The notes: a model not told the origin generated them from the sequence alone. 57,885 bases of DNA from Myxococcota bacterium (GCA_023150835.1 JAKLKB010000026.1:1-57885), one strand, 5' to 3'. Positions 10,176 through 47,044 are shown, counted from the stretch's first letter. Numbers and translations are program-made.

Positions 10176-10535
10176 GTGCTCACCTGTGATCCTGTAGAAT
10201 GTTATCGAAGAACCCCGATAGTGGCTGTTGCAAAAAGATCCCGAGACGCTATCACAAGCGAACAAAAGACGCTAGAACCGCTCTGCCCAACTTGACGGGG
10301 CGTTGCACTGTTCCATCCAACAGCATCGCTCCTGTGAGGGGTCACGCAGCTTTTGCGAGAACAGATGCCTTGCCAGAAAACAAGTCCAACGTCGTGGCTC
10401 CTCTGTACAAAAGAAAAGAATTCAGTAAGGTTCCTTTGTTGCCGCTTGACAGGTGGCGCATGAAAGAAAAGGGCAAGACAGGCAAGACAAGTCTTTTGTT
10501 TGCTGGTTCAATCGTTGATAAAACGGGAGGTTTTC

Positions 10536-17160: not shown

Positions 17161-17381
17161 ACACGGCACCGACACACGCCCACCAAACCACCCTCGAAAT
17201 TCTTTGACACTCGATTTGCGGCCTCCCCTCTTGATCACCGCAGGCATAATTTGCGGCCTCCCCCCTTTTCGTCACAGACACAAACAGCTATCTTCGGTCG
17301 GATAACCCAAGCGCTCGTGCGCGATCACGACCCTCAAGCGCAAGGCCGTCTGAAAAGACCCGATCCAAGGAAGAGATCATC

Positions 17382-20132
17382 ATGCAAGTGTGTTGGCAAC
17401 AAGCTCTGCGCTTTGGCGTAGGTGCGATGATTGGTGTGTTGTGTGTATGGATGCTCACAGGCCCAACGGCGGTCTATGCGTGGAATCCGCTTGTTTTGAA
17501 TGGCGCTTGTGCCGAAAAGGGGACGCCTTGCAGTTCGACCGTCGGCAACGCAGGCGGCGAAAATGCCTGTTGCGATCCCGCAAACCCCCGAGCAGGCGGC
17601 TACAGCAGCGTTGAACAATGCGCAACGCGAAACGCTTGCGCAGGCGGGCGACCCTATAGATGGCTGAATCTTCCTGTGGTGTGGTTTTGGAACCCCAACG
17701 GACTCTCAGCGGGCTTTCGTAGTCGCAACGAGGCGCAGTATGAAAGCGCACTCAAGGCCGCTTGGGATGCTTGGAACAAGCCGACGTGTACCTCTTTTCA
17801 ACACCGCTACGGCGGACGCACCACCAAAGGCGGCGATCGCAACGACAAAACCGTCGTGATCTACTTCCCCACACAAACCGAATGGGCGCAGTTTGGGGCG
17901 GGAAACTCGACCCTCGCCTTTGCACGACCCAACCCCACAAGCAGCGATGGCCGCCTTGAAGATGGAGATGTGATCTTCAATCCCAACGTGGGCTGGGGTA
18001 CTTCACCCGTTCAACGTTCGGAGTACGACTTTCTCGCCGTAGCAGCGCACGAGATCGGCCATGCCATCGGCCTCGGACATAGCCAGTTTACGGGCGCTTT
18101 GATGTACTACGCAACACGCGGTAGCGGCGAAGAATGGAGCCGCTTGGGTGGAAAACTTCCCGCCGATGATGAAACAGCCATCTGTACGACCTATCCAAGC
18201 CTCAACTGCGCCCAACCCTCGGACTGTGGGGGATGTTTTACTTGTGGCACAGGCGGAAAGTGCGTCATCAAATCGATCCCACTGGCTCGCAATCTGTGTA
18301 AACCATGCACAAAGCCCGATGATTGCGGTGGATTGCAAGATATCTGTGTCCGAACCCCCGATGGCAACCGTTGCGCCCAATCCTGCGACAACAACGGCTG
18401 TTGCCCAGACGGATATCGCTGTTCTGATGTCGGAAACGGCCTGCGGATGTGCATCCCCGACTCAGGCCGCTGCCCCCCCATCTCGTGTACAACCTCCGCC
18501 GAATGCGGCCCGGGAGAGCAATGCGCCAACGGCACATGTTCCCCCCCTGTTGTCTCCCTAAAGTCGGGCGTTTGCACGCTCTGCCCCAAAGGCACCTGCC
18601 CCAACCAAACAGGGTGCTTTGATATCGATGGCGAAAAACGATGCCTCCAACCTTGCGTCGCTGACAACTTCTGCCCACAAGGCTATGTCTGCGGATTGTC
18701 TAGCACCTTGGGCCGCCAATGCGTACCTGAAAAAGGATTCTGCGCTTGCACCAAAGACGAGGACTGTCCCCCCACCCAACGCTGCGAAAGCGGAAACTGC
18801 CGTATCCCGGGTGGCGGAAAATACTTTGATATCTGCACTGACAAAAAGCCCTGTGGCCCCGGCTACAACTGCCTCGAACTCCAAAATGGCAACAAAGCCT
18901 GCCTTCAACTTTGCGGGGCCAACGCCCCTCCCCACTCAGGACTCCCCGGCACCCCGGGCGCTCCCTGCAACAACGGCCAATGCTCCCAAGGCGCTCAGTG
19001 TTTTTCTCTAGGTGCGGGGAGCAATGTCTGCTTTCCTGAGTCCTGCAACAACGGTGTCTGCACCAGCGGCGGTCAATGCTTCCAGATCCCCCGCGTAGGC
19101 AACAACTGCCTTTGTCAAAAAGATGGCGACTGCACCACAGGCTTTTGCAACACCGCGATCCTCAGCCAGATCTTTGGCGGTTCCTACGGTGCTTGCGCTC
19201 CCAAACCTGACAACTACCCGTGCGAAAAAGACTTTTTGTGCCTTGACTTTTCCACCAGCAAAGGCTGCACAGGACAAAGCCAAGCCTGCGTTTGTCGCCC
19301 GGGACCCAACGTCAAAACCCGCGCAGTAGGCGACACTTGCAACGCCTATATCGAAGACTGCAAACCCGAAGCCGACTGCGTCGCAAGCAGCAACTCCCCA
19401 CGAGACGGCCTCTGCAACGAACGCTGTAACCCCCGAATCACCGGCCAATGCAAATCAGGCGGAGGTTGTATCATCCAAGGTGCAAACAGCTTTTATTGCG
19501 GTTGCAGCACACAAGTCTCCTGTCCACAAGGCAGCGAATGCCGCAACATCAACCCCTTTACAGGACAAGGTATGTGTGCCAGCGCTGCCCTCGACTGCGG
19601 CAACAAGACCTGCCAAGCCGACAAAGGCGAAGATTGCACCACCTGCCCCGCCGATTGCGCTTGTCAAAATGGCCTCACTTGCCAAACAGGTGCTTGTGTC
19701 GCTGCGGGTTCTTGTGGCAACGGAACCTGCGAAGCTGACAAAGGCGAACACTGCGGCTCTTGCTCCGCCGACTGCGCCTGTCCAAACGGGCAATCTTGTC
19801 AAAACAACACTTGCCAAACCATCCCCACCCAAACCTGCGGAGATGGAAAATGCGAGGCCGACAAAGGCGAACACTGCGGCTCTTGCACCGCTGACTGCGC
19901 CTGTCCAAACGGGCAATCTTGTCAAAACAACATCTGCAAAACGCCCGCTCCTAGCCTGCCCTGCCCCGCCGAGGAACAACGCGAAGAATGCGACGTCGAA
20001 GGCAACAACTGTGCAATGGTTTGCGTCACCCCCAACACAGGCTGCGGATGCCAAAGCACTCCCTTCAACCAACCCGTCCTGTGGTTCGGCCTTTTGTTCT
20101 TTCTGCTGCCCCATCTCCGCCGCAAGCCCTAA
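17382..20132 (+). CDS. Matrixin (M10-like metzincin) metalloprotease with Cys-rich stalk and MYXO-CTERM-like anchor
   Basis: Signal peptide, HEIGHAIGLGH and Met-turn ALMY. The C-terminus reads GCGC..VLWFGLLFFLLPHLRRK. Confidence 0.93.
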   Translation: MQVCWQQALRFGVGAMIGVLCVWMLTGPTAVYAWNPLVLNGACAEKGTPCSSTVGNAGGENACCDPANPRAGGYSSVEQCATRNACAGGRPYRWLNLPVVWFWNPNGLSAGFRSRNEAQYESALKAAWDAWNKPTCTSFQHRYGGRTTKGGDRNDKTVVIYFPTQTEWAQFGAGNSTLAFARPNPTSSDGRLEDGDVIFNPNVGWGTSPVQRSEYDFLAVAAHEIGHAIGLGHSQFTGALMYYATRGSGEEWSRLGGKLPADDETAICTTYPSLNCAQPSDCGGCFTCGTGGKCVIKSIPLARNLCKPCTKPDDCGGLQDICVRTPDGNRCAQSCDNNGCCPDGYRCSDVGNGLRMCIPDSGRCPPISCTTSAECGPGEQCANGTCSPPVVSLKSGVCTLCPKGTCPNQTGCFDIDGEKRCLQPCVADNFCPQGYVCGLSSTLGRQCVPEKGFCACTKDEDCPPTQRCESGNCRIPGGGKYFDICTDKKPCGPGYNCLELQNGNKACLQLCGANAPPHSGLPGTPGAPCNNGQCSQGAQCFSLGAGSNVCFPESCNNGVCTSGGQCFQIPRVGNNCLCQKDGDCTTGFCNTAILSQIFGGSYGACAPKPDNYPCEKDFLCLDFSTSKGCTGQSQACVCRPGPNVKTRAVGDTCNAYIEDCKPEADCVASSNSPRDGLCNERCNPRITGQCKSGGGCIIQGANSFYCGCSTQVSCPQGSECRNINPFTGQGMCASAALDCGNKTCQADKGEDCTTCPADCACQNGLTCQTGACVAAGSCGNGTCEADKGEHCGSCSADCACPNGQSCQNNTCQTIPTQTCGDGKCEADKGEHCGSCTADCACPNGQSCQNNICKTPAPSLPCPAEEQREECDVEGNNCAMVCVTPNTGCGCQSTPFNQPVLWFGLLFFLLPHLRRKP

Positions 20133-35400: not shown

Positions 35401-35506
35401 CCGAACAGAAGTCGGCCAACTGCGGGGGTGGGTGCTTGGAGACGAACAAAGTATCGGGTTATTGGAAGCGTTTGTGCGGTTTATACGATATCCAAGTGAT
35501 GTGTGA
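32459..35506 (+). CDS. SEC-C zinc-motif protein with helical repeats, coiled coil and HEPN-like C-terminal domain
   Basis: KIGPNETCPCGSGKKYKRCC at the N-terminus (TTG start after GGAG), TPR-like helices and a K/E/Q coiled coil. The C-terminus has FSRVVE and LRNRASH (RxxxxH). Confidence 0.8.
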   Translation: MLRKIGPNETCPCGSGKKYKRCCMRNEREENAQTEGREADFIPTTEYAEAMRMLLQESSSPSEISPKLAALFSSTSDLPDYSALKPFQPTALLPSIEPKWRPLPERLLKNQAYSKELLRLLHPEQQRYLWIISEQMNQQTPKAWEQALALLQKIPLAERCKLRGLFLSELNALSSLGRRDAYLQTLLSALLTEGDPFFWFDMGGHLLRLSNEFQQTIPLPTQEIILLCKALQEKIPEQSSPVLRMFLLHCASFFPEFYQELSEKHRIPRLLAEAWRVEHFFPQSPLYGYLLSALVYTTQRLVSVCDLLASWTESLKVGRFLWKRLIEETVGSLHGLFLLLDKQGEPETILAICRELLSIYPNDPHLHYWRGRLKTEEKHSKEKAESFGIVMRQASKLPSICLYEVALWWLSNKEIPPDVWASLQSFEAAIAEEISLQTFFLRMGVLFFRYVRHGEDEDLLQKIEPLLVTYGELPGVTRYAYEHLVMMGRFAEIEPILVHAWEENKAENAFAGALLAVGWASRGETERVRALFASEAEATTYLESLPLVGSQLPQRFELAWGASQLRSGDEAQGMRWLEKVYAQQKDHETALAFLEALFQRLGLLKQSAKDEDNEAFARLSLRFEAISAHLQSTRKEPPQLVFLLCLYHILREEWETARTFLNKIDTAVFDADPSMHPLGFLLYTLTHAGCGEWEEAARAALRFFPTVMERKELQDIFHQFFIGLVDAYAEQQKHATKLERKIQKQEAQGNVLSSLQEEKAKLKQILRKISSEKGTLQKALFDIHQTIQYPEKKQNEHENLLEKKVEEFKKRHQILLREFPYNHREMLLQAERLWWQSALSPRDDHAPVALQFSRVVEWAINHYWVDPLMAFALERGQMLADLPACRSRLLPAQNRLTLGDALRLFYMEVVREKDGKEERQKNAHANEALRILLAAYWSERATPASAQNEQAARYLQEEAVFVLTDLLRLRNRASHAGAILSRTEVGQLRGWVLGDEQSIGLLEAFVRFIRYPSDV

Positions 35507-35610
35507 TCGCAATGTCGATGCGATCCGCTGTAATGGTGATGCGGGTGGCGTCTCCCTGATTTGATGAAAAACATTCGGTAGCTCTAGGAGAATAGGCGAA
35601 GTGTCCGAGT

Positions 35611-35635
35611 GTTAGCCCCCTGTGGCTGCCCCTAC
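35611..35635 (-). repeat. Degenerate GTAG-family REP element
   Basis: Reverse complement GTAGGGGCAGCCACAGGGGGCTAAC, sharing its core with 11849..11874. Confidence 0.65.
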
Positions 35636-35714
35636 ACCGTTACGGTCACACGAAGGGCGGATTTCGTATGAGTCGGTCCAAAGAACAGCAAGGACTTGGA
35701 ATGGAGCTGATCAC

Positions 35715-36107
35715 TCAAAGAGCCGTGAGCTGGCCCAAGACGCTGCTGGTGATATGGAGAACCCACGTCTGGAAATCTTCTTCCGAGATATCTTGCAATT
35801 CTTTACACGAAGGCTCGATAAAATGCTCCAAGAGGATCTCTTGATCGAGAGAACGTTTAAGGAATTGTTGGCAAGCGCTGCGTTCGCAGCGATGGTGACA
35901 TCCAGCAAGACCGATGAGGGACTTGGCTTGGCGGGCGAGTTGAAGAGCGTGAGGTAATTCGGCCATCAGAGGGACGAGATCGATGATATCGATATCGTCG
36001 ATCTGTTCGCGCAAAAGTTGTGCGACGCGTTGAGTGAGTTGGCCGCGTAGCGTATGCCCATTGCAAGGGACAAGGATCACAGAAGCAGCAGAAACAGACG
36101 GAGGCAT
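35715..36107 (-). CDS. DGC-like (putative zinc-binding) protein
   Basis: VILVPCNG..GQL and LIGLAGCHHRC match the DGC pattern (CxG..GQ; I.IDGCxxxC). Confidence 0.7.
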   Translation of the reverse strand: MPPSVSAASVILVPCNGHTLRGQLTQRVAQLLREQIDDIDIIDLVPLMAELPHALQLARQAKSLIGLAGCHHRCERSACQQFLKRSLDQEILLEHFIEPSCKELQDISEEDFQTWVLHITSSVLGQLTAL

Positions 36108-36145
36108 CGGGGACTCCTAAGGAAGAAAGAAAGCAACCATGCACC

Positions 36146-36538
36146 TTAAAGAGAGACAGCTTTGTGCGTGATCAACAAAGAGGCGAGTTTGGTCAGCCCT
36201 GCTTGTGTGACACAAGAGCGCAAGCCGCCGACTTGATGGGCTTGAGGCGGGAGCGCGGCTTGGGTTTCTTCGGCACAACTCGCACAGACATAGATCTGCC
36301 CGCCCGCTTCTTCGAAAAGTTTGGTGTAGATATCGAGTCGATCAAAACCGGGGATATGGATGCTTTGAAGAACCGATTCAAACGCCCAGATCGCAGCTTG
36401 TGCGTGCAAAAAGACGACAACTTCTTCGCCCATCGCTTGGAGAGAAACCGCCAAAGCAAAGGCCAATGTCGCACGAGAACCACCGTCTTCTTGGCCGTGT
36501 GTCAGGACGATGAGATGCCCTTTGGGTGTTTTTGTCAT
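36146..36538 (-). CDS. DsrE-family protein (CxxC)
   Basis: LIVLTHGQED..RATLAF..VVFL..GGQIYVCASC. Confidence 0.88.
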   Translation of the reverse strand: MTKTPKGHLIVLTHGQEDGGSRATLAFALAVSLQAMGEEVVVFLHAQAAIWAFESVLQSIHIPGFDRLDIYTKLFEEAGGQIYVCASCAEETQAALPPQAHQVGGLRSCVTQAGLTKLASLLITHKAVSL

Positions 36539-36547
36539 AGATAATCC

Positions 36548-36931
36548 TTAAAAAACAGTAACTTGTCCTTTAATCATAATCTCTGCGACACTGGAGAGGC
36601 CGGCATAATGGGCACCTTTGCGCAGCGATTGGCGAAAAGCGTTGCTGTCCATGGTGGGAAGAAAACAATAAGCATCCAAGCAAGGCGAACACACAAGCAC
36701 GGGTCCGCCTTGTTCGAGATAAGTGCTGAGATACGTTGCGAGCGTGGGTTCGTCAGCGAGTTGGACATCTTCGCCCGTCCCTTCAAAAGCCCACCGGGTA
36801 CCCGAGAGAGTCAGAAAAATACTTACATGGCAGTCCATGGCTTGTAAAGCAAGAGCGAGTTTGGTTCCAAGCAAAGCGGCTTGACCGCCGTCTTCGCGAC
36901 CGCGTGTGATGATGATCAGATGAGGTTGCAC
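36548..36931 (-). CDS. DsrE-family protein (CxxC), paralogue of the adjacent gene
   Basis: LIIITRGRED..VSIFLT..GGPVLVCSPC. Confidence 0.88.
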   Translation of the reverse strand: MQPHLIIITRGREDGGQAALLGTKLALALQAMDCHVSIFLTLSGTRWAFEGTGEDVQLADEPTLATYLSTYLEQGGPVLVCSPCLDAYCFLPTMDSNAFRQSLRKGAHYAGLSSVAEIMIKGQVTVF

Positions 36932-36961
36932 AGGAGACTCCGTAGGAACGGGAAAAAGCGC

Positions 36962-37552
36962 TCAAACCACAAAGAACAGCTTGGATTGGACGGCATCTCC
37001 GAGACAAGAAGTCACACCCGCACACTGGAGATTGGGAAGACCCATGATATCTTCTTCGGTGAAGCCCATGATCTCCATGGTCAGCGTGCAGATGGTGAAC
37101 TTGACACCTGCTTCGACAGCCATATCCATCAGTTGCGGCAAAGAAGAAGAACCCGCTTTTTGCATAAAGTGGCGCATCATCATGGCTCCCATGCCGCCGA
37201 AATTCATTTTGGAGAGGCCGACGCGTGCGGGGCCTTTGGGCATCATCCATCCCATCATACGAGAAAGAAAAGATTTTTTTCTTTCAGGCAAAAGGCTTCC
37301 TTTTTTTCCAAGCGCAGGTTGATGTTTGTCTCGGCGCAAAAGATTCAGTCCCCACAAAGCAAAGAAGATATTGACTTCGAGGCCCATCGAACGGGCGGAC
37401 ATGGCGAGCATAAAAGCGAGAAAGACGCGATCAAAGTCGTCGCTCGATAGCAAGATCGTCATCTGTTGGTTATCCGCAGCAGCGGCATTCATGGCCTTGC
37501 TTTGCATGGCTTGGGCGAGTTGTCGTGCCAAAGAGTCCGAAGAGACAGACAT
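36962..37552 (-). CDS. DsrE/DsrF/DrsH-like (DsrE2/YrkE-type) protein
   Basis: SDDFDRV, IFFALWGLNLLR, LSKMNFGGMG and GVKFTICTLTMEIMG. Confidence 0.92.
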   Translation of the reverse strand: MSVSSDSLARQLAQAMQSKAMNAAAADNQQMTILLSSDDFDRVFLAFMLAMSARSMGLEVNIFFALWGLNLLRRDKHQPALGKKGSLLPERKKSFLSRMMGWMMPKGPARVGLSKMNFGGMGAMMMRHFMQKAGSSSLPQLMDMAVEAGVKFTICTLTMEIMGFTEEDIMGLPNLQCAGVTSCLGDAVQSKLFFVV

Positions 37553-37594
37553 AGGAGGCTCCTTTGAAGGAAATCGGCTTGATTCACCGATGGA

Positions 37595-39139
37595 TCAGGG
37601 CTTGTGCAACCAAGCGTGGTACACATGGCCTTGTTGTTTTTCTTTTTGGACGATGTATCCGTGGATATCGCACCAGGCTTTGAGATCGACAGGAAAAGCA
37701 GGGTCGTCGGCGCTGACTTTCAACGGGTGTTTGGGATGTTCGCGGACCTGTTTGCTAAGCTGAACGATGGGCATAGGACATTTGAGTCCGCAAAAATTGA
37801 GGGGGATCGGTTCGGGGGCAAGATCTTCAAAAGAGTCGCTGGAAGCGGAAAGATGCGAAAGGCCGTCAGGAGGAAGCGAAAACGATCCAGAGCTGGTAGG
37901 TTGCGTTGCGTTTGAGGCGAGAGGAACGGGAAGATCGATCAAAGAATCAATGGGGATAGGAGGTTGTAAGGTCGGCGTGCGGGTATCGGTATCGCGAGAA
38001 AACACAACGTTCCCCGAAGCTGGCGACAAGGGGCTACGAGGAGAGGGCGTAGGAGAGGAAGCGGGAAGAGAGTTGTTTCCGACATATTCTGTTGGTGGTT
38101 TCGAAGAGATCGAGGACAACGAGGAGGAGGAGGTCGAAGGGGCGGGAAGAGCGAGCCAAACCACCACAGATTGGTCGGATTGTTGGGCATGAAGAAAGCG
38201 GACGTCTTTTTGTTCGCACCAATGTTGGACGTCTTGGATGAATTGGGGATCGCGGGTTTCGATGCGCAAAAGGCCGGATTTGGTGTGTTGTTTTCGTTCT
38301 TTTTGCAAAGCGACGAGGTGAAGCGGCGAGCGTTTGTCGTTGTAATCGAGGCTCGCGAGCAACGGAAGTCCAAGTTCGCGGACAGGCGGAGGAAGAAGCG
38401 AGGTGCTTTCAGAAGCAGAAGCCAAAGCAACAGGAGAGACGGGAAATGTCGAAGCGGCGAGAAGTTCGGGAGGGACTTTGATGACAAAGGAGCTCGAAGC
38501 AGGCGCAGGGATCACAGGAGGCTTTTTCGCGAAGTGTAGTCGCACACGAAAAGGCAAAGCGTCGGGTGAGGAGAGCCATTCGACACGCGCTTCGCTGCGT
38601 TCTGCCCATGCTTTCAGATCTGCTGGAAAAGCCCGATCATCGGCCATGATATCCAGTGCGGTGGGATTGCTTTTTCGGACATACGCCGAAAGCCGAACGA
38701 TCGGCATCGGACACTTGAGTCCGAGATAATCCATGGATTCGATCGCTGCGTTTTCTGCGCGGGCAGAAGAAAACACCAAGCGACAAAGGGCAGAAACGGT
38801 CTTCTCGATCTCTTTTTGCAAAAGCCCCACAGAAGAAAAGTCGGGCGTGAACAACACCGCGTCAGGTGGGCGAAAAGAGTCCATTTGTGCCTTGGTATCT
38901 TCGATCGAGCGGCTGGTTAAGACCACGAACGCATGGGCCAAAACGAGTCGACGATGTGCGTACAGATTGTTTTTTTGAAGAGCTGCGAGGTCGATCAAGA
39001 CGACCGAAGCGGGCAAGATCTGGTGCAGTTCCTTCGCAGACAGAGCATTTCCGTATTGTAAAACGGCGACTTCTTCTTGCGTGACAGGCGGGAGTCCAAG
39101 CCACTGCGAGAGCGTGTGATAAGCTTGTTGAGATCTCAT
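37595..39139 (-). CDS. Multi-domain sulfur carrier: Cys-less DGC-like N-terminus plus three TusA/SirA domains
   Basis: DYLGLKCPMPIV..ADDRAFPADLKAW; a degenerate DYNDKRSPLHL..TRDPQFIQDVQHW; and NFCGLKCPMPIV..ADDPAFPVDLKAW. Confidence 0.88.
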   Translation of the reverse strand: MRSQQAYHTLSQWLGLPPVTQEEVAVLQYGNALSAKELHQILPASVVLIDLAALQKNNLYAHRRLVLAHAFVVLTSRSIEDTKAQMDSFRPPDAVLFTPDFSSVGLLQKEIEKTVSALCRLVFSSARAENAAIESMDYLGLKCPMPIVRLSAYVRKSNPTALDIMADDRAFPADLKAWAERSEARVEWLSSPDALPFRVRLHFAKKPPVIPAPASSSFVIKVPPELLAASTFPVSPVALASASESTSLLPPPVRELGLPLLASLDYNDKRSPLHLVALQKERKQHTKSGLLRIETRDPQFIQDVQHWCEQKDVRFLHAQQSDQSVVVWLALPAPSTSSSSLSSISSKPPTEYVGNNSLPASSPTPSPRSPLSPASGNVVFSRDTDTRTPTLQPPIPIDSLIDLPVPLASNATQPTSSGSFSLPPDGLSHLSASSDSFEDLAPEPIPLNFCGLKCPMPIVQLSKQVREHPKHPLKVSADDPAFPVDLKAWCDIHGYIVQKEKQQGHVYHAWLHKP

Positions 39140-39330
39140 CACACCCCCCATTCAGACGAGACGGACAGACGCAAAAGAGAAGAATCCCACAAGATGCGCG
39201 AAATGCGGCGGCTGCAATCGATCCTGCAAGGCGAAACCTCGATGAAGGGAAGTCTCCGTGAGTGTTGCGAGATGTGGCCGCAGCAACGGTGGGCCGTAGG
39301 ATGCAGTGAAGACATAACGGTATCCTCGGA

Positions 39331-39813
39331 TTATCGGGTTTCAAGGTGCAAAATATATTCATCGCCATGAAGGGCATCTCGATCGTCACAAGAGACACGA
39401 AACGGCAATTGTACCGAATCAAGCGCACCTTCGATCAGTAAAGCCAAGACGTTTTCGGTCGGGAGTCCCATCTGGCGACGTGCAGGAAACAACACCCGAC
39501 TGATCATGCAACGCATCACAAGGATCGAAGGACGCGCATGGATATCGGTCTGCGCCAGTTCAAAAACACGGACGAGACCGAGAACACTGAAGACCTCGGC
39601 CAGTTGTTCTAGCGCAGCCATCAGATCGCGTTCGAGCGGGAGTTGGCGGGCGAGAGAGGCCCCCCACTGGCGCAAGATGGCGCGATATTGATCGATCGTC
39701 AGGACTCCTTGATCGATGCTTTCCATCAGGCTGCGAAGAAAAGAGAAGAAAACCTCGTTGCCGCCGGCATAAGCAAGTCGTTGTGATTGGGAGGGTTGTT
39801 GCGAAACGCTCAT
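39331..39813 (-). CDS. Hypothetical protein, V4R/MetOD1/BcsD-like fold suspected
   Basis: ATGA overlap with the upstream gene. Pattern FLRSL.E..D....ILRQWGASLA..L..L..LG....ILVMRC..LIEGAL. Confidence 0.55.
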   Translation of the reverse strand: MSVSQQPSQSQRLAYAGGNEVFFSFLRSLMESIDQGVLTIDQYRAILRQWGASLARQLPLERDLMAALEQLAEVFSVLGLVRVFELAQTDIHARPSILVMRCMISRVLFPARRQMGLPTENVLALLIEGALDSVQLPFRVSCDDRDALHGDEYILHLETR

Positions 39814-41363
39814 GGCGAATCCTTCGGTGGAGAGTGTGGAGTGGGGACACAAACGCGTTGAGGTTGTTTGTTTTTTCGATGGAGTGGGACTTCGATGCAC
39901 GTTGTTCCGACACGACAGCCCTGTTTGGGGAAAAGCCGAAAGTCGCACTGCGTCATACACAACCCCCCTTTGGTGATCGGCAAGGGATCAACGTAAGGAG
40001 CCAAAGCCTCGGCACGGATACAAGAAGACGGCGCGTGCCAAGGATTCGTCGAGCGCGGACACCACGCCAAGCAATAACGAGTGCAGTATCCGCCTTTTGG
40101 AACAGGCAAGCACATCGGTTTGGTGTAGCCACAAGACTGTTGCGAAGTGCAAAGTCCTCCGATCCAACCTTGGTTGACCATCTGACTGCGCAAAAGATGG
40201 GCAGCGTCGACAGGTGAAGGCTTCGGAGAGGCTGGAGGCTTCGGAGGCGTCGGAGGATTCGAGGTGGGACGATCCGAAGTAGGCGGTTGCACAACAGAAG
40301 AGGCGACATCGGTCAGCGGCTTTTTTTCGGGCGGCGTCGTGTTGGGCTTTTGTGCGACGGTGGCAGACGCATGAAGTGGTCGTGCTGACGTTGCTTCGGG
40401 CCCTATCGTGGATGGCTTTTGGGTCGAAGAAGCATCGGAGGGGCGAAGCGCGCTGGGTCGCGGTGGTTCGGGCGGTTTCGTTCCAAGAGAAAGACGAGAA
40501 AGAGGCGGATGTTTCGATGTTGTCGAAGAAAAAGGAATCGGAAAAGGAGAGGCGAAACGCCACCAGATCGCCGCAGTAAGCAAGAAGACGATGAAAAGGC
40601 CCATATAGCGGGTCTTTTTACGAGCTTTGACGGCTTGATCTTGGAACAGTCCAGTTTGCGGCCCCGAAAAACGCGCCACCGAAACAGAAGGCGCGGGATT
40701 TGGCGGGAAAACATCGTTGCGTGGAGTTGTGGCAGATCTCGGATCTGCCGAAGGAGTTGTCGTCACGGCGACGGATACAGGTGCGGTGGTCGACGCGGGC
40801 GCAGAAGCGACAGAAGCCGCACGAGCGGAAGATGGGGCGGGAAGGAGAAGGTGGCGCTGTTCAGGCAAAGAGGGCAGGTCGACAAAGCGCCGTCGTTTGG
40901 GCGAAAAAGCGGCAGGAGGTAAAAAAGCGGGAGTGTGCGGGACTTGCGGGATCAAGGCCGAATACGAAACGACCGCATCTTCGAGGGAACGGAGTTGGCT
41001 TTCAAAGGGGGCATCTGGGGCAAGGATCACTTCGCGTTCGACGGGAGCAACGTGCGCAAGCAGCTTTTTGGGGCAATTGTCCTTGCATCCAGCCACGCTG
41101 ACGCGGGCTTGTGCGCACTCGTAGCGATGTTGGGTCCCGGGGCCTTTGTGAAAGATCAAGGGCGGGATGGAATAAATGCACGCAAGATGTGGTGATTGTC
41201 GTTGCGCGAGGGCTTGCACGATCCGCCCGATTTGTGGGTTTTTGTCGCAACCATCGCAAGGAACGATCGCGACTTCTTCGGTGGTGGTAGGGGGAATCGC
41301 CAGAAGCGACCAGCGGCTGCGCGAAGACTCTGGTGTGGACATGGAATGCCTTTCTTGGGCCAA
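39810..41363 (-). CDS. Membrane protein: DGC-like N-terminus, Pro-rich linkers, one TM, Cys-rich C-terminal domain
   Basis: IVPCDGC..GRI..VAGCKDNCPKK, the TM YMGLFIVFLLTAAIWW, and WIGGLC..C..C..GGYCTRYC..CP. Confidence 0.78.
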   Translation of the reverse strand: MAQERHSMSTPESSRSRWSLLAIPPTTTEEVAIVPCDGCDKNPQIGRIVQALAQRQSPHLACIYSIPPLIFHKGPGTQHRYECAQARVSVAGCKDNCPKKLLAHVAPVEREVILAPDAPFESQLRSLEDAVVSYSALIPQVPHTPAFLPPAAFSPKRRRFVDLPSLPEQRHLLLPAPSSARAASVASAPASTTAPVSVAVTTTPSADPRSATTPRNDVFPPNPAPSVSVARFSGPQTGLFQDQAVKARKKTRYMGLFIVFLLTAAIWWRFASPFPIPFSSTTSKHPPLSRLSLGTKPPEPPRPSALRPSDASSTQKPSTIGPEATSARPLHASATVAQKPNTTPPEKKPLTDVASSVVQPPTSDRPTSNPPTPPKPPASPKPSPVDAAHLLRSQMVNQGWIGGLCTSQQSCGYTKPMCLPVPKGGYCTRYCLAWCPRSTNPWHAPSSCIRAEALAPYVDPLPITKGGLCMTQCDFRLFPKQGCRVGTTCIEVPLHRKNKQPQRVCVPTPHSPPKDSP

Positions 41364-41369
41364 CCCGCC

Positions 41370-43316
41370 TTACCCTTTTTCAGGGGGAGGATAAAAGGAT
41401 TGTAGTTGCGCGAGAAGCTTGAGATCGAGTTGCCGTTGCATACTTCGCTGTAGCGGGCCTTTGTGCGCACGTACAAAAAAATGAGCATTGTGCCAACCAA
41501 GGAGAGTTTCGAGAGCTTCTTCTCCACACGTCGAGCCGAGGCGAACATCCAAGATATCCTCGCCTTGGCTATAAAGCATGGCTTGGAGCGAGTCGTCTGT
41601 TTTCAAAAAATGCGTACAAAAGATGCCGTCATGTTCGCTTAAAGTGCGCAATAATTGAGAAAGATGGATATGGCGAAGCTCTCCCTGTAACAGCGTTTCT
41701 TCTGGAGAGATTCCAAGATAATTCGCGGAAGAAGACATACTTCGTTCTAGTCGAATATTTTCCCCTTCGAGCTGCGAATTCTTCAGTTGCAATTCTTCGA
41801 TGATCTGTGTGGCATGGAGATTTGCGTCCGCAAGCGCGCTCAATCGGTCGCGTAATTCGGCTTCTTTGACGCTGCTATGTTCTACGTTGCGTTGCAAAAG
41901 TTGCAGGCGTTGGATGGTCGCAGAGCTTTGTTCGAGCACTCGCAAGCGCTCGTGGATATCGGAGAGGGAAGGACGCCCGAGATGGACAGTGCTGATCCCA
42001 CACAGTTCGATCGCCATGCGCAAGAGTTCAGGCTGGGCCTCTGCGAGAACAAGCACTTTGTGGACATCGTGAAAATCTTTGAGGGCTTGGAGAAAGGGAT
42101 GTTCGAGGGCGACATGAAGGCCACCAAAGATCACACCGGCGGGGACGCGTTGTTGGGAGAGGAGTGCGCGGAGCGCTTGATGGATCTGGTCGTTGTTTTC
42201 GAGCAGTTGGATCTGATAGCTTTTTTGGTTTGACCAAGGATCGACAAGGCGGCGGATCAAGGATTCGTCGAAAAGAGCATCATTGGCGAGGAGATAAACG
42301 ATGGGGCGGCGTTGGGCTTGGAGCAAAGGTGAGCTTTGTGTGAAGGAACGAGCGAAGATGCCCGAAGATTGGGCAGATGAAGCGTTGGAGGCGGGTTGGT
42401 TGGGCTGGGCGACAAATTGGCGAACACAATCTGCGGTGATGCGTCGAAGTTTCTCTTGGGTTTGAGGAAGGATGCAAGCTTCTAAGGCATCGAAAAAAGC
42501 GCGTGCGTGGGGGTAACGTTTCGTGGGTTCGGGAGAAAGAGCACGTTGAACGATCGCGGCGAGAACAGGGTCGATCTGTGGAATGACTTCTTGGATGGGT
42601 GCAAAGTTCGGATCCATCGCAGACTGTAAAGCACGCCATGAATGCTCGCGAGCAAAAAGAGTTTGTCCCGTTAAACCTTCATAAAGTAATATGCCTAAAG
42701 TATAAAGATCAGAGCGATGATCGACGACTTCCCCACGCGCTTGTTCGGGGGAAAGATAGCCAAACTTACCTTTGATCGTGCCGGGTTGAGTCTGATGAAG
42801 CTGATCGCGGAATCGTGCAAGCCCAAAATCCGCCAACTTCACATGGCCTTCTCGGGAGAGCAGGAGATTGTCTGGGCTGATATCGCGATGCACAAGGTTC
42901 ATGGGTTCGCCATGTTCGTCTTTCAGGTGGTGCGCGTAATCAAGAGCCAACAAAGTCTGCATCACGATATAGATCACCACTTCGGGCGGGATCCCGTAAC
43001 GCGCTCGAATCAACGAAGACACCGTACACCCATCCACATACTCCATAACGATGGCGTACTCTTGCTCAAGGCGCTCAAATGACCAAAAAGACACGATGTT
43101 CGGGTGATTGAGATAAATCGAGAGGCGAGCTTCGTTCATCAAACTGTTCATGAGTTCCGAAGATTGCGACCATTGCGCGGGAAGCTTTTTCAACACCACT
43201 TGCTTTTGAAAGCCTTCGACACCTTCGTAAGCCGCAAGGTACGTCACCCCCATCCCCCCTGCACCAAGCAACGCCTTGAGAGAATAAGAGGAAGACGTTT
43301 TTTCGGTGTTTTTCAT
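41370..43316 (-). CDS. Ser/Thr kinase plus degenerate receiver domain, coiled coil and DUF4388/PATAN-like domain
   Basis: [22 protein letters not shown] and GKFGYLSPEQ motifs. The C-terminus reads LQGELRHIHLSQLL..GEEALETLLGW. Confidence 0.9.
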   Translation of the reverse strand: MKNTEKTSSSYSLKALLGAGGMGVTYLAAYEGVEGFQKQVVLKKLPAQWSQSSELMNSLMNEARLSIYLNHPNIVSFWSFERLEQEYAIVMEYVDGCTVSSLIRARYGIPPEVVIYIVMQTLLALDYAHHLKDEHGEPMNLVHRDISPDNLLLSREGHVKLADFGLARFRDQLHQTQPGTIKGKFGYLSPEQARGEVVDHRSDLYTLGILLYEGLTGQTLFAREHSWRALQSAMDPNFAPIQEVIPQIDPVLAAIVQRALSPEPTKRYPHARAFFDALEACILPQTQEKLRRITADCVRQFVAQPNQPASNASSAQSSGIFARSFTQSSPLLQAQRRPIVYLLANDALFDESLIRRLVDPWSNQKSYQIQLLENNDQIHQALRALLSQQRVPAGVIFGGLHVALEHPFLQALKDFHDVHKVLVLAEAQPELLRMAIELCGISTVHLGRPSLSDIHERLRVLEQSSATIQRLQLLQRNVEHSSVKEAELRDRLSALADANLHATQIIEELQLKNSQLEGENIRLERSMSSSANYLGISPEETLLQGELRHIHLSQLLRTLSEHDGIFCTHFLKTDDSLQAMLYSQGEDILDVRLGSTCGEEALETLLGWHNAHFFVRAHKGPLQRSMQRQLDLKLLAQLQSFYPPPEKG

Positions 43317-43603: not shown

Positions 43604-44791
43604 TCATCGATAAGGGAACGGCGAAACGCCGACAAAAAGCGTGTGAGTATAAAGCAATGCGACGTACACCACGAGGGCGGCAGAAAGGCGGAGAAGAGAA
43701 ACATCCTTTCGTGTGAGGCGCGTTCGCCCTTGAATGACCGCCAAGAAAGGAAGGGCGGAAGTTTGTTGCGCAAAGGCTTGCCATGCCTCGCCCTGCGTTG
43801 CGCGGCGGCGAGCATCGATGTGCGCCATGCCGACGAGGGCAAGAAACGTCACACTTCCAAAAAGGATGACACTCGCGAGATCGCCGTTGGTGGGGATATG
43901 CAACATCCCCCAAAGCGCAAACGACCAAAGAGACGGATGGCGCGTGATCTTGAGGATACCTTGGACGGCGTCTTGTGCAGAGAGTCGATTTTCTTGTCCG
44001 GCAGTCGTGGGACTTGGGGTACTGACGCCCAACACAAACAACACACACACCACAGGCATCCCCAAAAGCGGCAGATAACGCGTCCATGCAGGTGCCACCC
44101 AAAGCTCGACATACGGCGCAGAAGACCAGCCCCACGACATCCACAGCATCGCAGTCAAGGCGATGATCGAATACAAGCCTTGAAAAGCGCCGTTTCCAAG
44201 GCGGTCGCTCAAGCGGCGGCGAACAGCCAAGCTAGAAAGCCCGAGATGACCGAAGACAAAGAGCAGCGCACCGAGGATCACATGCCAAAGGCTTACTGTC
44301 CCCTTAGTTCGGGCTTCTTGGAGCTTTTGAGGTTCGGAAAGATCGCGTAAGACAGCGAGGATCGCTTCTTCTTCTTGTGCGGCCAGCCGATACGCGGGCA
44401 TCACAGGAGCATACCCTTCGCGGATCTCGGATTGCGGTTCACGCAGCGCACGCAACAAAGCCTCGCGATCGGCGATCGCATGGAGGCGTTTTCCGCCGCG
44501 CTGGATGGCGCGAGGCTTGTTCCATAGCCCCGCCAATCCCGGCCCGATATGGCGATCGAGATCAAGGCGATGGCAGCCAGTACAACCTTGTTGAACCAAG
44601 ACCTTGCGGCCCAGTACAAGGTGTTCTTTGCGGCGGATCGAAGAGGCGAGGTCAGATCGCGTAGGTTGTTTTTGCGCGGATTGCGCGGGCGGTTTTTGCG
44701 TGGATTGTGCAAGAGCCTCGGCCCATCCACCTCCGATGAAACCCACCCACCCACCCACCAAGACAAGATACCTCATGCCAAGATTTCGCAT
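43604..44791 (-). CDS. Cytochrome c-NnrU fusion protein
   Basis: Signal peptide, heme motif CTGCH, GPGLAGL and GY..VMP (Met ligand), then NnrU-like GLYSIIAL, ITRHP, HIPTNGD, HIDARR and TSALPF. Confidence 0.85.
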   Translation of the reverse strand: MRNLGMRYLVLVGGWVGFIGGGWAEALAQSTQKPPAQSAQKQPTRSDLASSIRRKEHLVLGRKVLVQQGCTGCHRLDLDRHIGPGLAGLWNKPRAIQRGGKRLHAIADREALLRALREPQSEIREGYAPVMPAYRLAAQEEEAILAVLRDLSEPQKLQEARTKGTVSLWHVILGALLFVFGHLGLSSLAVRRRLSDRLGNGAFQGLYSIIALTAMLWMSWGWSSAPYVELWVAPAWTRYLPLLGMPVVCVLFVLGVSTPSPTTAGQENRLSAQDAVQGILKITRHPSLWSFALWGMLHIPTNGDLASVILFGSVTFLALVGMAHIDARRRATQGEAWQAFAQQTSALPFLAVIQGRTRLTRKDVSLLRLSAALVVYVALLYTHTLFVGVSPFPYR

Positions 44792-44872: not shown

Positions 44873-46918
44873 CTAAAAGGAATCTCCCTCGGGGAGACTC
44901 CATTCTGTCGAAGAAGAAGTGCGATGCGCCTCGTCCATGCGGCGCAAAAGATCCAACAAAAGCTGATCCGTGCGTTTGTGGATCGTCGTTTCAACCCCCG
45001 CAGGAAGGGCTTGTAGCATAAAATGCGCGTCTGACCAACGGAGCAAAAGCTCGATCACAGGCTCTCCACGCAACACCCCATAACAAGCATCCACCACTTC
45101 GCCTTTTTCAAAAAACAGGGATGCTTGATGAGGATCTTCTTTGCGGATCAAGGAGACGCACGCGCTTTTTCGGCTCAAGTTGAGCAACTGGAAGATATCA
45201 GTCAGCGACATCTCACGAAGTTCACCACGCATAAAACAGCCCGAACGATGGGCTTGCATCTCTTCGGTAAGCAAAGTGCGCGAGATGCGTTCGAGAAAAT
45301 GATCTTTGGCTTCAAGTTCTTTGTTTTTGGCATTAAGTTCTTCAAGAAGTTGAACTGCTCGGATATTGGCCGCAGCGAGCGCGTCGACCCGCGAACGCAT
45401 CTCGATCTCGATTTGGCTGCTGCTTTCCAGACGTTTTTGAAGCATATGCAAACGATCGGAGCTTTGGTGCGTGTTCAAAAAAGAGTGGAGGTGTTCCTGA
45501 ATCCCATCCAGCGTCAAGGGAGCCTGCAACGTGGCCGTCACGCCGCAAAGTTCGACGGCCAATTCGACGATCTCAGGTTGGGGTTGATCGAGAACCAACA
45601 GCTTCGCGATATGGGGATGACTTCGCAGCGCCGCAAGAAAGGGATGTTGCAAAGCCACTTGCAAACCAGCAAACAAGACACCGTCCGGCACACGATGAAG
45701 GTTTTGAAGTGCATCTATCGCACGAGAGCTATCCGCCTTGTCTCGCAAGATCTCGAACTGATAAGCCTTGCGCCCTTGCCATGGGTTGGCGATTTGATTG
45801 CAGAGGCTTTCGGGAAAAAAAGAGTCATTGTGCAAGAGATAGATCAGCGGCTTTTGATGATGTTCAGAAAGAATAGCATGATGCGTTTGTGAAGTTTGTC
45901 GCATAGAATTCACAGAAGGATCCGATTGAACCAAAACAACCTTTTTCTTGTTTTGTAGTGTACTTAACCAACCAGAAGAAGTTTTTTTATGCTCTTCAAA
46001 TCTCTTTTCTGCGAGAAAAGTATGCAGTTTTTCTTCGAGAAGCCGTCGCATTTTTTCGAGGCTCCAAGGTAAAACAAAGACTTCAAGCGCATCATAAAAA
46101 GACCAAGCATTTTGGAAGCGCTGTTCAGGATCGGATTGAAGGGATTTGTGAACGATATCGATCAAGGACGGGTGAAGTTGGGGGGCCGCTTCGTGGAGAG
46201 GTGGGATGGCACCTTTTGCAGAGAGTTGAAGCATCTGGAGCGGGTGTTCTGCTTGGTAAAGACGGCACCCCGTCAAGCCTTCGTACAACAAGATGCCCAC
46301 AGCGTAGAGATCCGCACGCTGGTCGAGTCTTTGGCCGCGTGCTTGCTCGGGGGACATATAGCCGTATTTGCCTTTGATGGTTCCGGGCTGAGTTTTATCG
46401 AGTTGATTGCGGATCTTGGCAAGACCAAAGTCGGTCAGTTTGGCAAAGCCATTGTGGGCCAAGAGCACGTTGTCTGGGCTGATATCTCGGTGGACGAGAT
46501 GCAGGGGGCGTCCGTTTGCGTCTGTTCGTTTGTGAGTGTAATCAAGGGCCAGCAAAAGCTGCATCACAACGCACAAAACAATCTCTGGTTCGAGCCGTTC
46601 GGTATTTTGCATCCAAAAAGACAGAGGGCAACCATCGATATACTCCATCACAAGGGAGTATTCATTTTCTTCGTGGAGCAAGTCGTAGATGGAAACGATG
46701 TGCGGATGATCGAGCATCACCGCCAGCCGAGCCTCCGAGATCAGGGCATCGACCATCATCGGATCATGCGTCAGGTTGGGATGCAAGCGTTTCACGACCA
46801 CTTGTTTTTCAAACCCCTCGCTCCCTTCGTACGCAGCGAGGTAAGTGACACCCATGCCACCCGCCCCCAACAATCTCTTGAGTTGATAACGCTTCGCGGA
46901 TCGCAGAGCAGACACCAT
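44873..46918 (-). CDS. Ser/Thr kinase plus degenerate receiver domain, coiled coil and DUF4388/PATAN domain (paralogue of 41370..43316)
   Basis: [17 protein letters not shown] and [10 protein letters not shown] motifs, then [39 protein letters not shown] at 46918 after GGAG. Confidence 0.92.
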
Positions 46919-47044
46919 ACGATTCTTCTCCTGATTCTCTTTTAAAAACAAACTCTTGTGTCGATTTTCGACATTCATCCGCACCGTCGCGCCATGCACC
47001 GCGCCAACACACGCACAAAGATACGGCACCTTCAAAAACTTTCT

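Follow-up and report, generated by a model that had tools for sequence, protein, structure and literature searches.

Three paralogous DGC-superfamily domains in one TusA/DsrE gene set, one of them fused to a TusA array and lacking the cysteine motif

The DGC family (Pfam PF08859) consists of stand-alone "putative zinc-binding proteins" of about 130-180 aa and of unknown function, and a preprint describes four conserved, potentially metal-chelating cysteines in its domain (bioRxiv 10.1101/2022.10.17.512643). The family is large, with 6,982 near-length relatives of one member at E<=0.001. No function is assigned to it: the full-text literature, searched by accession and family names, gave passing mention only, and its COG number and related phrases retrieved nothing there. 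Sulfur-carrier genes occur in recognized sets. Among those described are a dsrE3A-dsrE2B-tusA cluster in Metallosphaera cuprina (PMC4175335), Rhd-TusA-DsrE2 sets in sulfur oxidisers (PMC11094781), and the DsrEFH and TusBCD heterohexamers, in which three related DsrE-fold subunits form stacked rings (PMC11094781).

We analyzed a stretch of 57,885 nucleotides (the window; GCA_023150835.1 JAKLKB010000026.1:1-57885) holding an eight-gene set on the minus strand (35715-43316), which contains three paralogous domains of the DGC (PF08859) superfamily in one operon. The original prediction held that these domains act as adaptors docking a TusA array onto a membrane receptor, which would give the DGC family a role.

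An operon with three DGC-like domains

The order of the eight genes is conserved in three genera of a six-genome GTDB phylum: Ser/Thr kinase, membrane DGC-like protein, TRAPP/V4R-like protein, N-domain with three TusA domains, DsrE2-like protein, two DsrE-like proteins, and free DGC protein (Table 1). The bacteria that host the set are rare and uncultured.

Table 1. Positions of the genes and domains of the set, counted from the first letter of the window.
Feature	Position	Strand	Characteristics
Ser/Thr protein kinase, 648 aa	41370..43316	-	Pkinase 131.7 bits; first gene of set
Single-pass membrane protein, likely start ATG 41342	39810..41363	-	Cytoplasmic DGC-like domain, Pro/Ser/Thr-rich linkers, one TM, outer 12-Cys domain
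Membrane DGC-like domain	40974..41309	-	PCDGC ... VAGCKDNC; 4/4 motif Cys
Predicted TM segment	40542..40607	-	Kyte-Doolittle; KARKKTR on N-side; N-in, C-out
Cys-rich C-terminal domain	39813..40160	-	12 Cys; last ~115 aa of membrane protein
Small protein, 160 aa	39331..39813	-	Weakly TRAPP/Bet3/V4R-like
Multi-domain protein, 518 aa	37595..39151	-	Cys-less DGC-like N-domain, three TusA domains, low-complexity linkers
Cys-less DGC-like domain	38753..39118	-	Motif positions Y33, A36, R81, D85; alignment, profile
TusA domain 1	38528..38737	-	CPMP cysteine C147; motif scan, Pfam
TusA domain 2	38138..38353	-	Ser replaces carrier Cys: RSPLHL, S275; motif scan
TusA domain 3	37598..37804	-	CPMP cysteine C458; best Pfam stretch, residues 451-516
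DsrE2-type sulfur-carrier-like protein, 196 aa	36962..37552	-	PF13686 DrsE_2 143.5 bits
DsrE/DsrF-like protein, 127 aa	36548..36931	-	VCSPC; PF02635 36.1 bits vs 22.7
DsrE/DsrF-like protein, 130 aa	36146..36538	-	VCASC; PF02635 37.2 bits vs 22.7
Free DGC-domain protein, 130 aa	35715..36107	-	PCNGH ... LAGCHHRCERSAC; PF08859 44.1 bits, E 2.3e-11; last gene

The kinase gene lies immediately 5' of the membrane DGC gene in G002, G003, and G004, and a Pfam search with the C-terminal ~340 aa of the kinase gave no match below E 0.2. The start codon of the small-protein gene overlaps the stop codon of the membrane DGC gene (ATGA, 4 nt), and in the four loci read and in a metagenome contig the small-protein gene always stood between those for the membrane protein and the TusA protein. 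Against Pfam TRAPP the small protein stayed under the cut-off of 27 (13.8 bits, E 0.05), and its top Atlas cluster, taken as a lead only, was TRAPP (score 0.90, 170 shared features; V4R at rank 13). Searching for related loci with an alignment of this protein recovered 3 genome loci and 2 metagenome loci. Contigs from an RNA library, which may contain DNA, matched the set without differences and spanned gene junctions. Promoter and terminator scans, compared with shuffled sequence (1 against 3.9 and 14 against 10.7), were judged at or below expectation.

Both Cys-bearing copies named in the original prediction are present. The free protein (PCNG at residues 14-17, LAGCHHRC at residues 67-74) passes the PF08859 gathering cut-off of 27 bits. 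It has three of the four motif cysteines, with His at the second position, and an additional Cys forming C-x3-C-x4-C; its AF2 model had a pLDDT of 88.4, and the gene occupies the same place in G001, G002, and G004. The membrane protein, conserved in G001-G004 and in P0015 and P0018, scored below that cut-off both directly (21.7 bits, E 2.1e-4) and in the genome scan (25.2 bits), and the first 135 aa of the TusA protein did not match PF08859 at E<=1. The four cysteines were present in all six membrane-type domains read. As predicted, the central motif is A-G-C in the free and membrane copies; it is T-S-R in the TusA N-domain and D-G-C in a canonical DGC protein elsewhere in the genome (contig C70; PF08859 113.6 bits).

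The transmembrane segment is a prediction from hydropathy, being the sole 19-residue Kyte-Doolittle window above 1.6 in the membrane protein. The Cys-rich C-terminal domain is probably extracytoplasmic. It matched nothing in Pfam at E<=10 or in the Atlas at >=0.9, and the only other copy in the genome (E 2.2e-13) belongs to a protein with a lipoprotein-type signal sequence.

In the multi-domain protein, three stretches matched TusA PF01206 (106.1 bits; cut-off 28.6). By motif scan the relatives contain 2-6 TusA domains, and the fusion of a DGC-like domain to such an array is a previously unlabelled architecture. TusA motifs were found in 11 of the 12 proteins scanned, P0011 having none, and each of the 11 has one non-Cys TusA domain: the residue is Ser in nine (window included), Ala in P0013, and Gln in P0014. 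Downstream, the DsrE2-like protein matched PDB entries 3pnx (E 1.3e-22) and 2qs7 (E 1.8e-8) and missed the cut-off of 210 of the NCBIfam DsrE2 equivalog NF047629 (58.1 bits). A PDB sequence search with the 127-aa protein gave no match at E<=1, and the three DsrE-fold proteins matched none of the NCBIfam DsrE, DsrF, DsrH, TusB, TusC, and TusD models at E<=1.

Homology of the TusA-linked N-domain

The original prediction also stated that the N-terminus of the TusA protein aligns with both Cys-bearing copies. In BLASTP this held, marginally, for the membrane N-domain (11/34 identities, E 3e-4), and the free DGC protein gave no match. An hhalign comparison of the three Cys-less sequences alone with canonical DGC proteins yielded E 0.74, and with the in-operon DGC copies a weak E of 4e-4 (probability 35%). 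The BLASTP values, the E of 0.74, and the missing Pfam match would fit a resemblance due to chance or convergence of unrelated alpha/beta domains. A profile search points the other way. The profile was built from 10 Cys-bearing N-domain relatives from other genera and metagenomes, none of them from the window's genus, and when the genome's 70,221 six-frame ORFs were searched with it, only four matched at E<=10: the membrane DGC domain (E 3.9e-14, ORF residues 21-132), the TusA protein (E 1.5e-9, residues 12-129), the free DGC protein (8.5e-4), and a canonical DGC protein on another contig (0.12). There were no false matches. A 12-row TusA N-domain profile (A5) found the membrane domain at E 1.8e-14. 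The TusA protein was missed at E<=10 when the profile came from three membrane-type domains of other genera.

Further evidence against a chance resemblance came from the relatives. Eight of the 12 N-domain family members matched PF08859 at E<=1 (best 2.9e-6), and in the hhalign alignment of the family profile to 24 canonical DGC proteins (probability 73%, E 3.1e-5) the Cys motifs fell opposite each other. The orthologous position within the TusA gene is occupied by a Cys-bearing domain in G003 and G004, and in a metagenome contig a Cys-bearing N-domain-TusA gene directly follows the small-protein gene. Since the Cys-less sequences alone miss canonical DGC proteins, the link from the Cys-less N-domain to DGC is transitive via these Cys-bearing orthologues; the pairwise alignments alone are marginal. 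A word-index protein search with the N-domain returned two proteins, both of the window's genus. An 897-aa repeat protein, P0017 (E 6.5e-6 over six stretches), without Cys motifs or TusA, was excluded by judgement, not by a test.

The AF2 models are consistent with homology. The N-domain model had a pLDDT of 80.3 (core 88-93), and its predicted topology is that of the free DGC model: the order of elements is b-a-b-a-a-b-a-b-a in both and the strands share alignment columns, a likeness judged from these two properties. Foldseek found no PDB match at E<=0.001 for either model, fold searches with both gave only generic flavodoxin-like matches, and the five entries common to their top-50 VIA lists are all generic alpha/beta folds. 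The in-operon DGC profile, run against PDB sequences, returned chance rows only (E>=0.47). Taken together, chance or convergence is strongly disfavoured and to us barely credible, and the N-terminus of the TusA protein is almost certainly homologous to DGC domains, with the cysteines lost, as the original prediction had it.

In the tree the TusA N-domain was closest to the membrane domain, in a clade of their own (support 98/92) apart from canonical stand-alone DGC proteins. The TusA-linked and membrane N-domains are sister paralogues of a divergent subfamily that lies below the Pfam threshold. It is a rare one: of 1.84 billion representatives, 14 matched at E<=0.001. The claim that the locus gives the DGC family a role overreaches, because the canonical proteins form a separate clade and have other fusion partners.

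Cysteine loss and selection on the N-domain

The CxxC...Cx3C motif is kept in 9 of the 12 TusA-linked relatives and lost only in the window's genus, where the four positions read Y/H, A/T, R, and D/E. The N-domain of the window has none of the four motif cysteines and a single Cys, C123, outside the motif. The three Cys-less sequences form a clade (support 100/99) on a stem branch of 1.74 changes per column.

Such a long stem might be read as the mark of a slowly decaying relic that serves only as a spacer after loss of the metal site. Identity to G002 was 59% in the N-domain, 71% in TusA domain 1, and 90% in TusA domain 3, the most conserved part of the protein (dN/dS 0.04). This places the N-domain among the faster-evolving parts, with an identity similarly low to that of the Cys-less TusA domain 2. 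A gap of 179 nt separates the small ORF from the TusA gene in the window's genus, compared with a 4-nt overlap in G003 and G004, which suggests that the 5' end was remodelled. Against a relic, the dN/dS of the N-domain was 0.136 (G000 vs. G001, 120 codons), near that of the TusA domains (0.04-0.10) and well under that of the second linker (0.37); these ratios come from one close pair, dS being saturated against G002. E26, E27, A29, and R68 are invariant in 12/12 TusA-linked domains, and E26, E27, and R68 are kept in 8/8 when four TusA-linked and four membrane domains are aligned. The window's copy retains the subfamily residues E26, E27, R68, A72, H73, and A74, the core of its model is predicted with confidence, and three species of the genus show neither frameshifts nor stops. 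We therefore consider decay distinctly improbable. The loss of all four cysteines under purifying selection shows that the role of this copy is cysteine-independent, and its job is probably structural rather than chemical.

Function and comparison with known systems

We hypothesized that the tetracysteine site of the subfamily is a structural metal site, most likely for zinc, and would be neither catalytic nor sulfur-carrying. Being structural, such a site could disappear once contacts between side chains, perhaps an Arg-Asp/Glu pair, took its place. What the N-domain still does would be to make a protein-protein or scaffolding contact that keeps the TusA array assembled with other products of the set. 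The combination of a structural metal site with a docking role falls somewhat short of an even chance in our judgement. As the best explanation overall, the sequence of three DGC-like paralogues, a structural site, loss of its cysteines from one copy, and a scaffolding role stands at about even.

A different function is conceivable, in which the DGC-like domains are chemically active: an Fe-S or metal-thiolate centre, or a Cys cluster passing on sulfane sulfur, a metal, or a metalloid. The domains would then be entry or exit points of the TusA/DsrE relay, and, with the free and membrane copies doing the chemistry, the TusA-linked copy would be a pseudo-domain in the window's genus. The retention of all four cysteines in 9/12 TusA-linked and 6/6 membrane-type domains fits a chemically required site whose task has passed to another copy in a single genus, and the free copy keeps three motif cysteines and the further conserved one. 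In the models the cysteines are placed just past strands 1 and 3, which would be the edge where folds of this kind commonly have their active site; the fold matches, for their part, are within the range of common arrangements. The fusion partners of canonical DGC domains include MOSC, MobA-like, GNAT, and haem-copper oxidase modules, and DGC is reported in an ars operon (bioRxiv 10.1101/2022.10.17.512643); these contexts fit a cofactor or metalloid role. The copy in the window, having lost all four cysteines while under purifying selection and with a confidently predicted fold, works without them. We regard this reading, relay ends and pseudo-domain included, as rather unlikely.

If the N-domain is a scaffold, its most obvious partner would be the membrane sister domain, with a homodimer, the small protein, and the free DGC protein equally open. 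Both sister domains were present in 5/6 genomes searched, never one without the other, and their genes are one small gene apart in the four loci read. A complex prediction with the membrane N-domain (5 rows) and the TusA N-domain (12 rows) gave no verdict (0.00 in both runs) and is uninformative either way. Specific docking of the TusA N-domain to the domain of the membrane protein, the pairing of the original prediction, seems unlikely.

A persulfide or thiosulfonate relay through the three DsrE-type proteins and the two TusA domains that bear Cys would carry out the sulfur chemistry. The presence of a kinase and of an outer Cys-rich domain suggests that this relay may be tied to an extracellular signal. 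A wider and quite unlikely proposal is that the operon encodes a kinase-controlled, membrane-tethered persulfide relay with the DGC-like modules as zinc-stabilised pairing domains and the outer Cys-rich domain as the sensor. The cytoplasmic copy of the membrane protein would recruit the TusA array via its sister domain, the free copy would compete with or cap this pairing, and the outer domain would read an extracellular signal and thereby switch TusA/DsrE sulfane-sulfur traffic. The Cys-less copy of the genus would then be a natural "metal-free" pairing domain, and the DGC fold would receive its first assigned function, that of an interaction module.

The locus represents a natural experiment, in that one lineage dropped the whole tetracysteine site from one copy and the domain is still under selection. 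This argues for a role of the DGC fold beyond metal chemistry, and the locus provides matched orthologues with and without the cysteines that can be compared directly. In the gene set, sulfur carriers are also combined with a kinase and with a membrane protein resembling a receptor. The reach of these findings is limited by the rarity of the subfamily and its occurrence in uncultured bacteria.

Compared with PF08859, the domains described here share the predicted ~100-residue alpha/beta build, with Cys after strand 1 and G-C-x3-C after strand 3 in the Cys-bearing copies. They differ in that the membrane and TusA-linked domains have an additional N-terminal segment, LLGIPxxxxEE, and a signature RRLxxAHA, the subfamily motif is A/S/G/N/E-[GA]-C and not D-G-C, and fusion to a TusA array or a membrane anchor was absent among the Pfam-labelled fused forms found. 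Zinc-ribbon ribosomal proteins exist as Cys-containing and Cys-free paralogues, the tetracysteine site having been lost as a block with fold and function kept. Their fold and context differ from those described here, and they are a precedent for a dispensable structural metal site only. As in DsrEFH and TusBCD, three DsrE-fold genes stand in a row, here directly downstream of the TusA gene, a likeness read from the genes alone; unlike in those complexes, the three here include a DrsE_2-type protein of 196 aa. As in the M. cuprina cluster and the Rhd-TusA-DsrE2 sets, the TusA gene adjoins genes for DsrE2-type and other DsrE-type carriers, and carrier cysteines are shared with them, here in two TusA domains and the DsrE-like proteins. 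No rhodanese, sHdr, Dsr, or Sox genes were found in the window (Pfam, 31 ORFs). Unlike those sets, this one has a three-domain TusA array (2-6 domains in relatives), one domain of which is Cys-less, and it is extended by three DGC-like modules, a kinase, and a membrane protein that resembles a receptor.

Three DGC-type domains in one gene set

Eight closely spaced genes on the minus strand (35715-43316; table below) encode three paralogous domains of the DGC superfamily (Pfam PF08859) in three architectures: a free protein, the N-terminal domain of a membrane protein, and the N-terminal domain (N-domain) of a TusA protein. No rhodanese, Hdr, Dsr or Sox genes were found within the window by Pfam. 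RNA-seq contigs assembled from three libraries of one activated-sludge sample match the operon without differences and span gene junctions (for example 38912-39858 and 36496-38211), which is only a hint of expression, since such libraries can contain DNA.

Features of the gene set and its surroundings
Feature	Position	Strand	Remark
Ser/Thr kinase	41370-43316	-	
517-aa protein, membrane DGC type	39810-41363	-	PF08859 21.7 bits, E 2.1e-4, cut-off 27
160-aa small protein	39331-39813	-	ATG overlaps stop of preceding gene
518-aa TusA protein	37595-39151	-	three TusA stretches; Pfam assigns TusA alone
Middle TusA domain, non-carrier	38138-38353	-	RSPLHL, Ser for carrier Cys
DrsE_2-type protein	36962-37552	-	
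DsrE/DsrF-like protein	36548-36931	-	
DsrE/DsrF-like protein	36146-36538	-	
130-aa free DGC protein	35715-36107	-	PF08859 44.1 bits, cut-off 27
NnrU-cytochrome c fusion gene	43604-44791	-	directly adjoins the set
Ser/Thr kinase with DUF4388	44873-47035	-	
Dispersed repeat, two units of ~50 nt	35483-35534, 35624-35672		
432-aa multi-module protein	10500-11798	+	
Trypsin-like and matrixin-like protease genes	14359-20132		

The cysteine motifs of the original prediction, PCNG..LAGCHHRC in the free protein and PCDGC..VAGCKDNC in the membrane protein, are both present, and both copies do read AGC instead of DGC. In the free protein the second motif position is His (Leu in a third genus of the same GTDB phylum, G004), and a conserved extra Cys lies five residues past the fourth (G-C-x3-C-x4-C); these changes may give it a ligand set different from the canonical one. 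In the 517-aa protein KARKKTR precedes the only hydrophobic segment, and the last ~115 residues contain 12 Cys. This Cys-rich module has one further copy in the genome (contig C120:21067-22452, E 2.2e-13), and the protein that carries it there has a lipoprotein-type signal sequence. From the segment and that signal, the predicted topology likely places the DGC-like domain on the cytoplasmic side and the Cys-rich domain outside. The C-terminal motifs of the C120 protein are those of what we take to be a LAS-type (D,D-peptidase-like) metallopeptidase.

Directly upstream of the set, on the same strand, come the gene for an NnrU-cytochrome c fusion and another kinase gene; G002, another species of the window's genus, has two kinases upstream and no NnrU gene in the stretch read. 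The gap between the free DGC gene and a convergent SEC-C/TPR gene contains two units of a dispersed repeat family with 62 further genome matches (E<=0.001, 78-94% identity), often paired 60-120 nt apart. Contig assemblies from several runs break off at these units, and the family looks REP- or MITE-like. Elsewhere in the window, Pacifastin, Kazal, VWC and fibronectin-I-like modules occur together in the 432-aa protein. These are protease-inhibitor and matrix domains of animal type, unusual for a bacterium, and the protease genes lie near the gene for this protein.

Homology of the N-domain to DGC

Pairwise support for homology between the N-domain and DGC is thin: BLASTP aligned the N-domain with that of the membrane protein (11/34 identities, E 3e-4) and gave no match with the free DGC protein. 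Orthologous genes occupy the same place within a shared gene order in G003, from a second genus, and in G004, and their N-termini keep cysteines (VPCGGC...LSGCSHHC and VVTCDAC...VEGCTEGC, respectively). A profile of four N-domain orthologues was searched against 1.84 billion representative proteins and matched 14 at E<=0.001. Eleven carry the N-domain (followed in ten by 2-6 TusA domains), two are of the membrane-anchored type, and one, a repeat protein, was judged spurious and dropped. Canonical stand-alone DGC proteins are absent from the 14. One matching protein, P0011 (302 aa), has a Cys-bearing N-domain and then a low-complexity tail without a TusA motif, which makes it a fragment or, alternatively, the subfamily's fourth architecture.

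The pattern CxxC...Cx3C is present in 9/12 aligned N-domains. PF08859 matches 8/12 at E<=1 (best 2.9e-6), and at this threshold the window's own N-domain is not matched. Alignment by hhalign of the family profile with 24 canonical DGC proteins (the genome's own copy and 23 chosen among the best 120 of 6,982 matches) gave E 3.1e-5 and a probability of 73%, with the Cys motifs in register. A non-circular test used a profile of 10 Cys-bearing domains from other genera and metagenomes, excluding the window's genus, against 70,221 six-frame ORFs (>=60 aa) of the genome. Four matches were obtained at E<=10, and no others: the membrane protein (E 3.9e-14), residues 12-129 of the window's TusA protein (E 1.5e-9), the free DGC protein (E 8.5e-4) and a canonical DGC protein on another contig (E 0.12). 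The original prediction of a DGC-like N-terminus without cysteines in the TusA protein is borne out by this match and by the motif columns, which hold Y/H, A/T, R and D/E in place of the four Cys in all three species of the window's genus. Against the link, the three Cys-less sequences alone did not reach canonical DGC (E 0.74) and gave only a weak match to the in-operon copies (E 4e-4, probability 35%). Nor was the TusA protein recovered at E<=10 with a profile made from three membrane-type domains. Because the Cys-less sequences match DGC weakly or not at all and their Cys-bearing orthologues do match, the link is transitive, yet firm.

For the N-domain, AF2 modelling from a 12-row alignment gave a mean pLDDT of 80.3, with 88-93 in the core, and the elements b(28-33) a b(50-53) a a b(74-79) a b(98-101) a. 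The model of the free DGC protein (pLDDT 88.4) has the same element order, the strands of the two models share alignment columns, and the Cys positions come directly past strands 1 and 3. A tree was built from 37 domains (13 TusA-linked, 6 membrane, 4 free, and 14 of the 24 canonical), and only its starred groupings were used, as the bootstrap was unsettled and long branches meet. TusA-linked and membrane domains group together (98/92), free copies form a separate clade (96/84), and canonical proteins stand apart (100/100). The Cys-less trio is a clade (100/99) whose stem is long, at 1.74 changes per column. Common to the two sister subfamilies are LLGIPxxxxEE before strand 1 and an R close to the end of the helix preceding strand 3; E26, E27 and R68 are kept in 8/8 rows compared.

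Loss of the cysteines and conservation of the set

The tetracysteine site of the TusA-linked copy has been wholly lost in one genus, and the domain has been kept under selection. Between G000 (the window's genome) and G001, another species of its genus, dN/dS of the N-domain is 0.136 over 120 codons, compared with 0.04-0.10 for the three TusA domains and 0.37 for the second linker; these values rest on this pair, and dS is saturated against G002. Identity to G002 is 59% for both the N-domain and the Cys-less second TusA domain, 71% for the first and 90% for the third. The N-domain is faster-evolving than its neighbours yet constrained. The small gene and the TusA gene lie 179 nt apart in the window's genus (window 39152-39330) and have a 4-nt overlap in G003 and G004. 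Remodelling of the TusA gene's 5' end may have occurred in the very lineage in which the cysteines disappeared.

In G002 and G004 the order is kinase, membrane DGC, small protein, N-domain-TusA array, DsrE2-like, two DsrE-like and free DGC. The ORFs of G001 match the set in size and order, G003 matches up to its contig end, and on a distant metagenome contig the small protein gene still adjoins a Cys-bearing N-domain-TusA gene. By family profile, both sister domains were found in 5/6 phylum genomes, the sixth being 86% complete. Sampling of the lineage is sparse, with six species genomes in the GTDB phylum, and all comparative counts here are limited by it. The relatives' records name Myxococcota or Myxococcales MAGs. 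The G000 assembly is 7.56 Mb in 239 contigs. Exactly one TusA domain lacks the carrier Cys (replaced by Ser, Ala or Gln) in 11/11 arrays of 2-6 domains each, which points to a conserved non-carrier module within the array.

Proposed role and comparison with known systems

The subfamily is rare and restricted to uncultured bacteria. No description of this Pfam-subthreshold DGC subfamily, its fusion to TusA arrays or its Cys-less variant was found in the full-text literature covered, and we regard all three as undescribed within it. They are of use chiefly as a natural experiment on a domain family yet to be characterised.

We propose that the tetracysteine site would be a structural metal site, and that the subfamily's conserved role would be to bring proteins of the set into contact. 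In the main rival reading, DGC cysteines are chemically active, and the window's genus delegated the chemistry to its other two copies. A DGC protein in an ars operon, described in bioRxiv 10.1101/2022.10.17.512643, points toward such activity, and the 21 fused forms found of canonical DGC domains leave room for it: 17 with GNAT and one each with MOSC, a MobA-like NTP-transferase and haem-copper oxidase subunit I (proteins P0139-P0158), and P0018, which is of the membrane type. Partners linked to Moco may hint at the function of the canonical family. For a role in contact, the original prediction had the DGC copies hetero-oligomerise and dock the TusA array onto a membrane receptor; pairing of the array with the membrane protein would be the most natural candidate, because the two carry sister paralogous domains and a single gene lies between theirs. 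Sulfur chemistry would fall to the DsrE-type proteins and to those TusA domains that keep Cys, an analogy drawn from the TusA/DsrE relays of PMC4175335 and PMC11094781.
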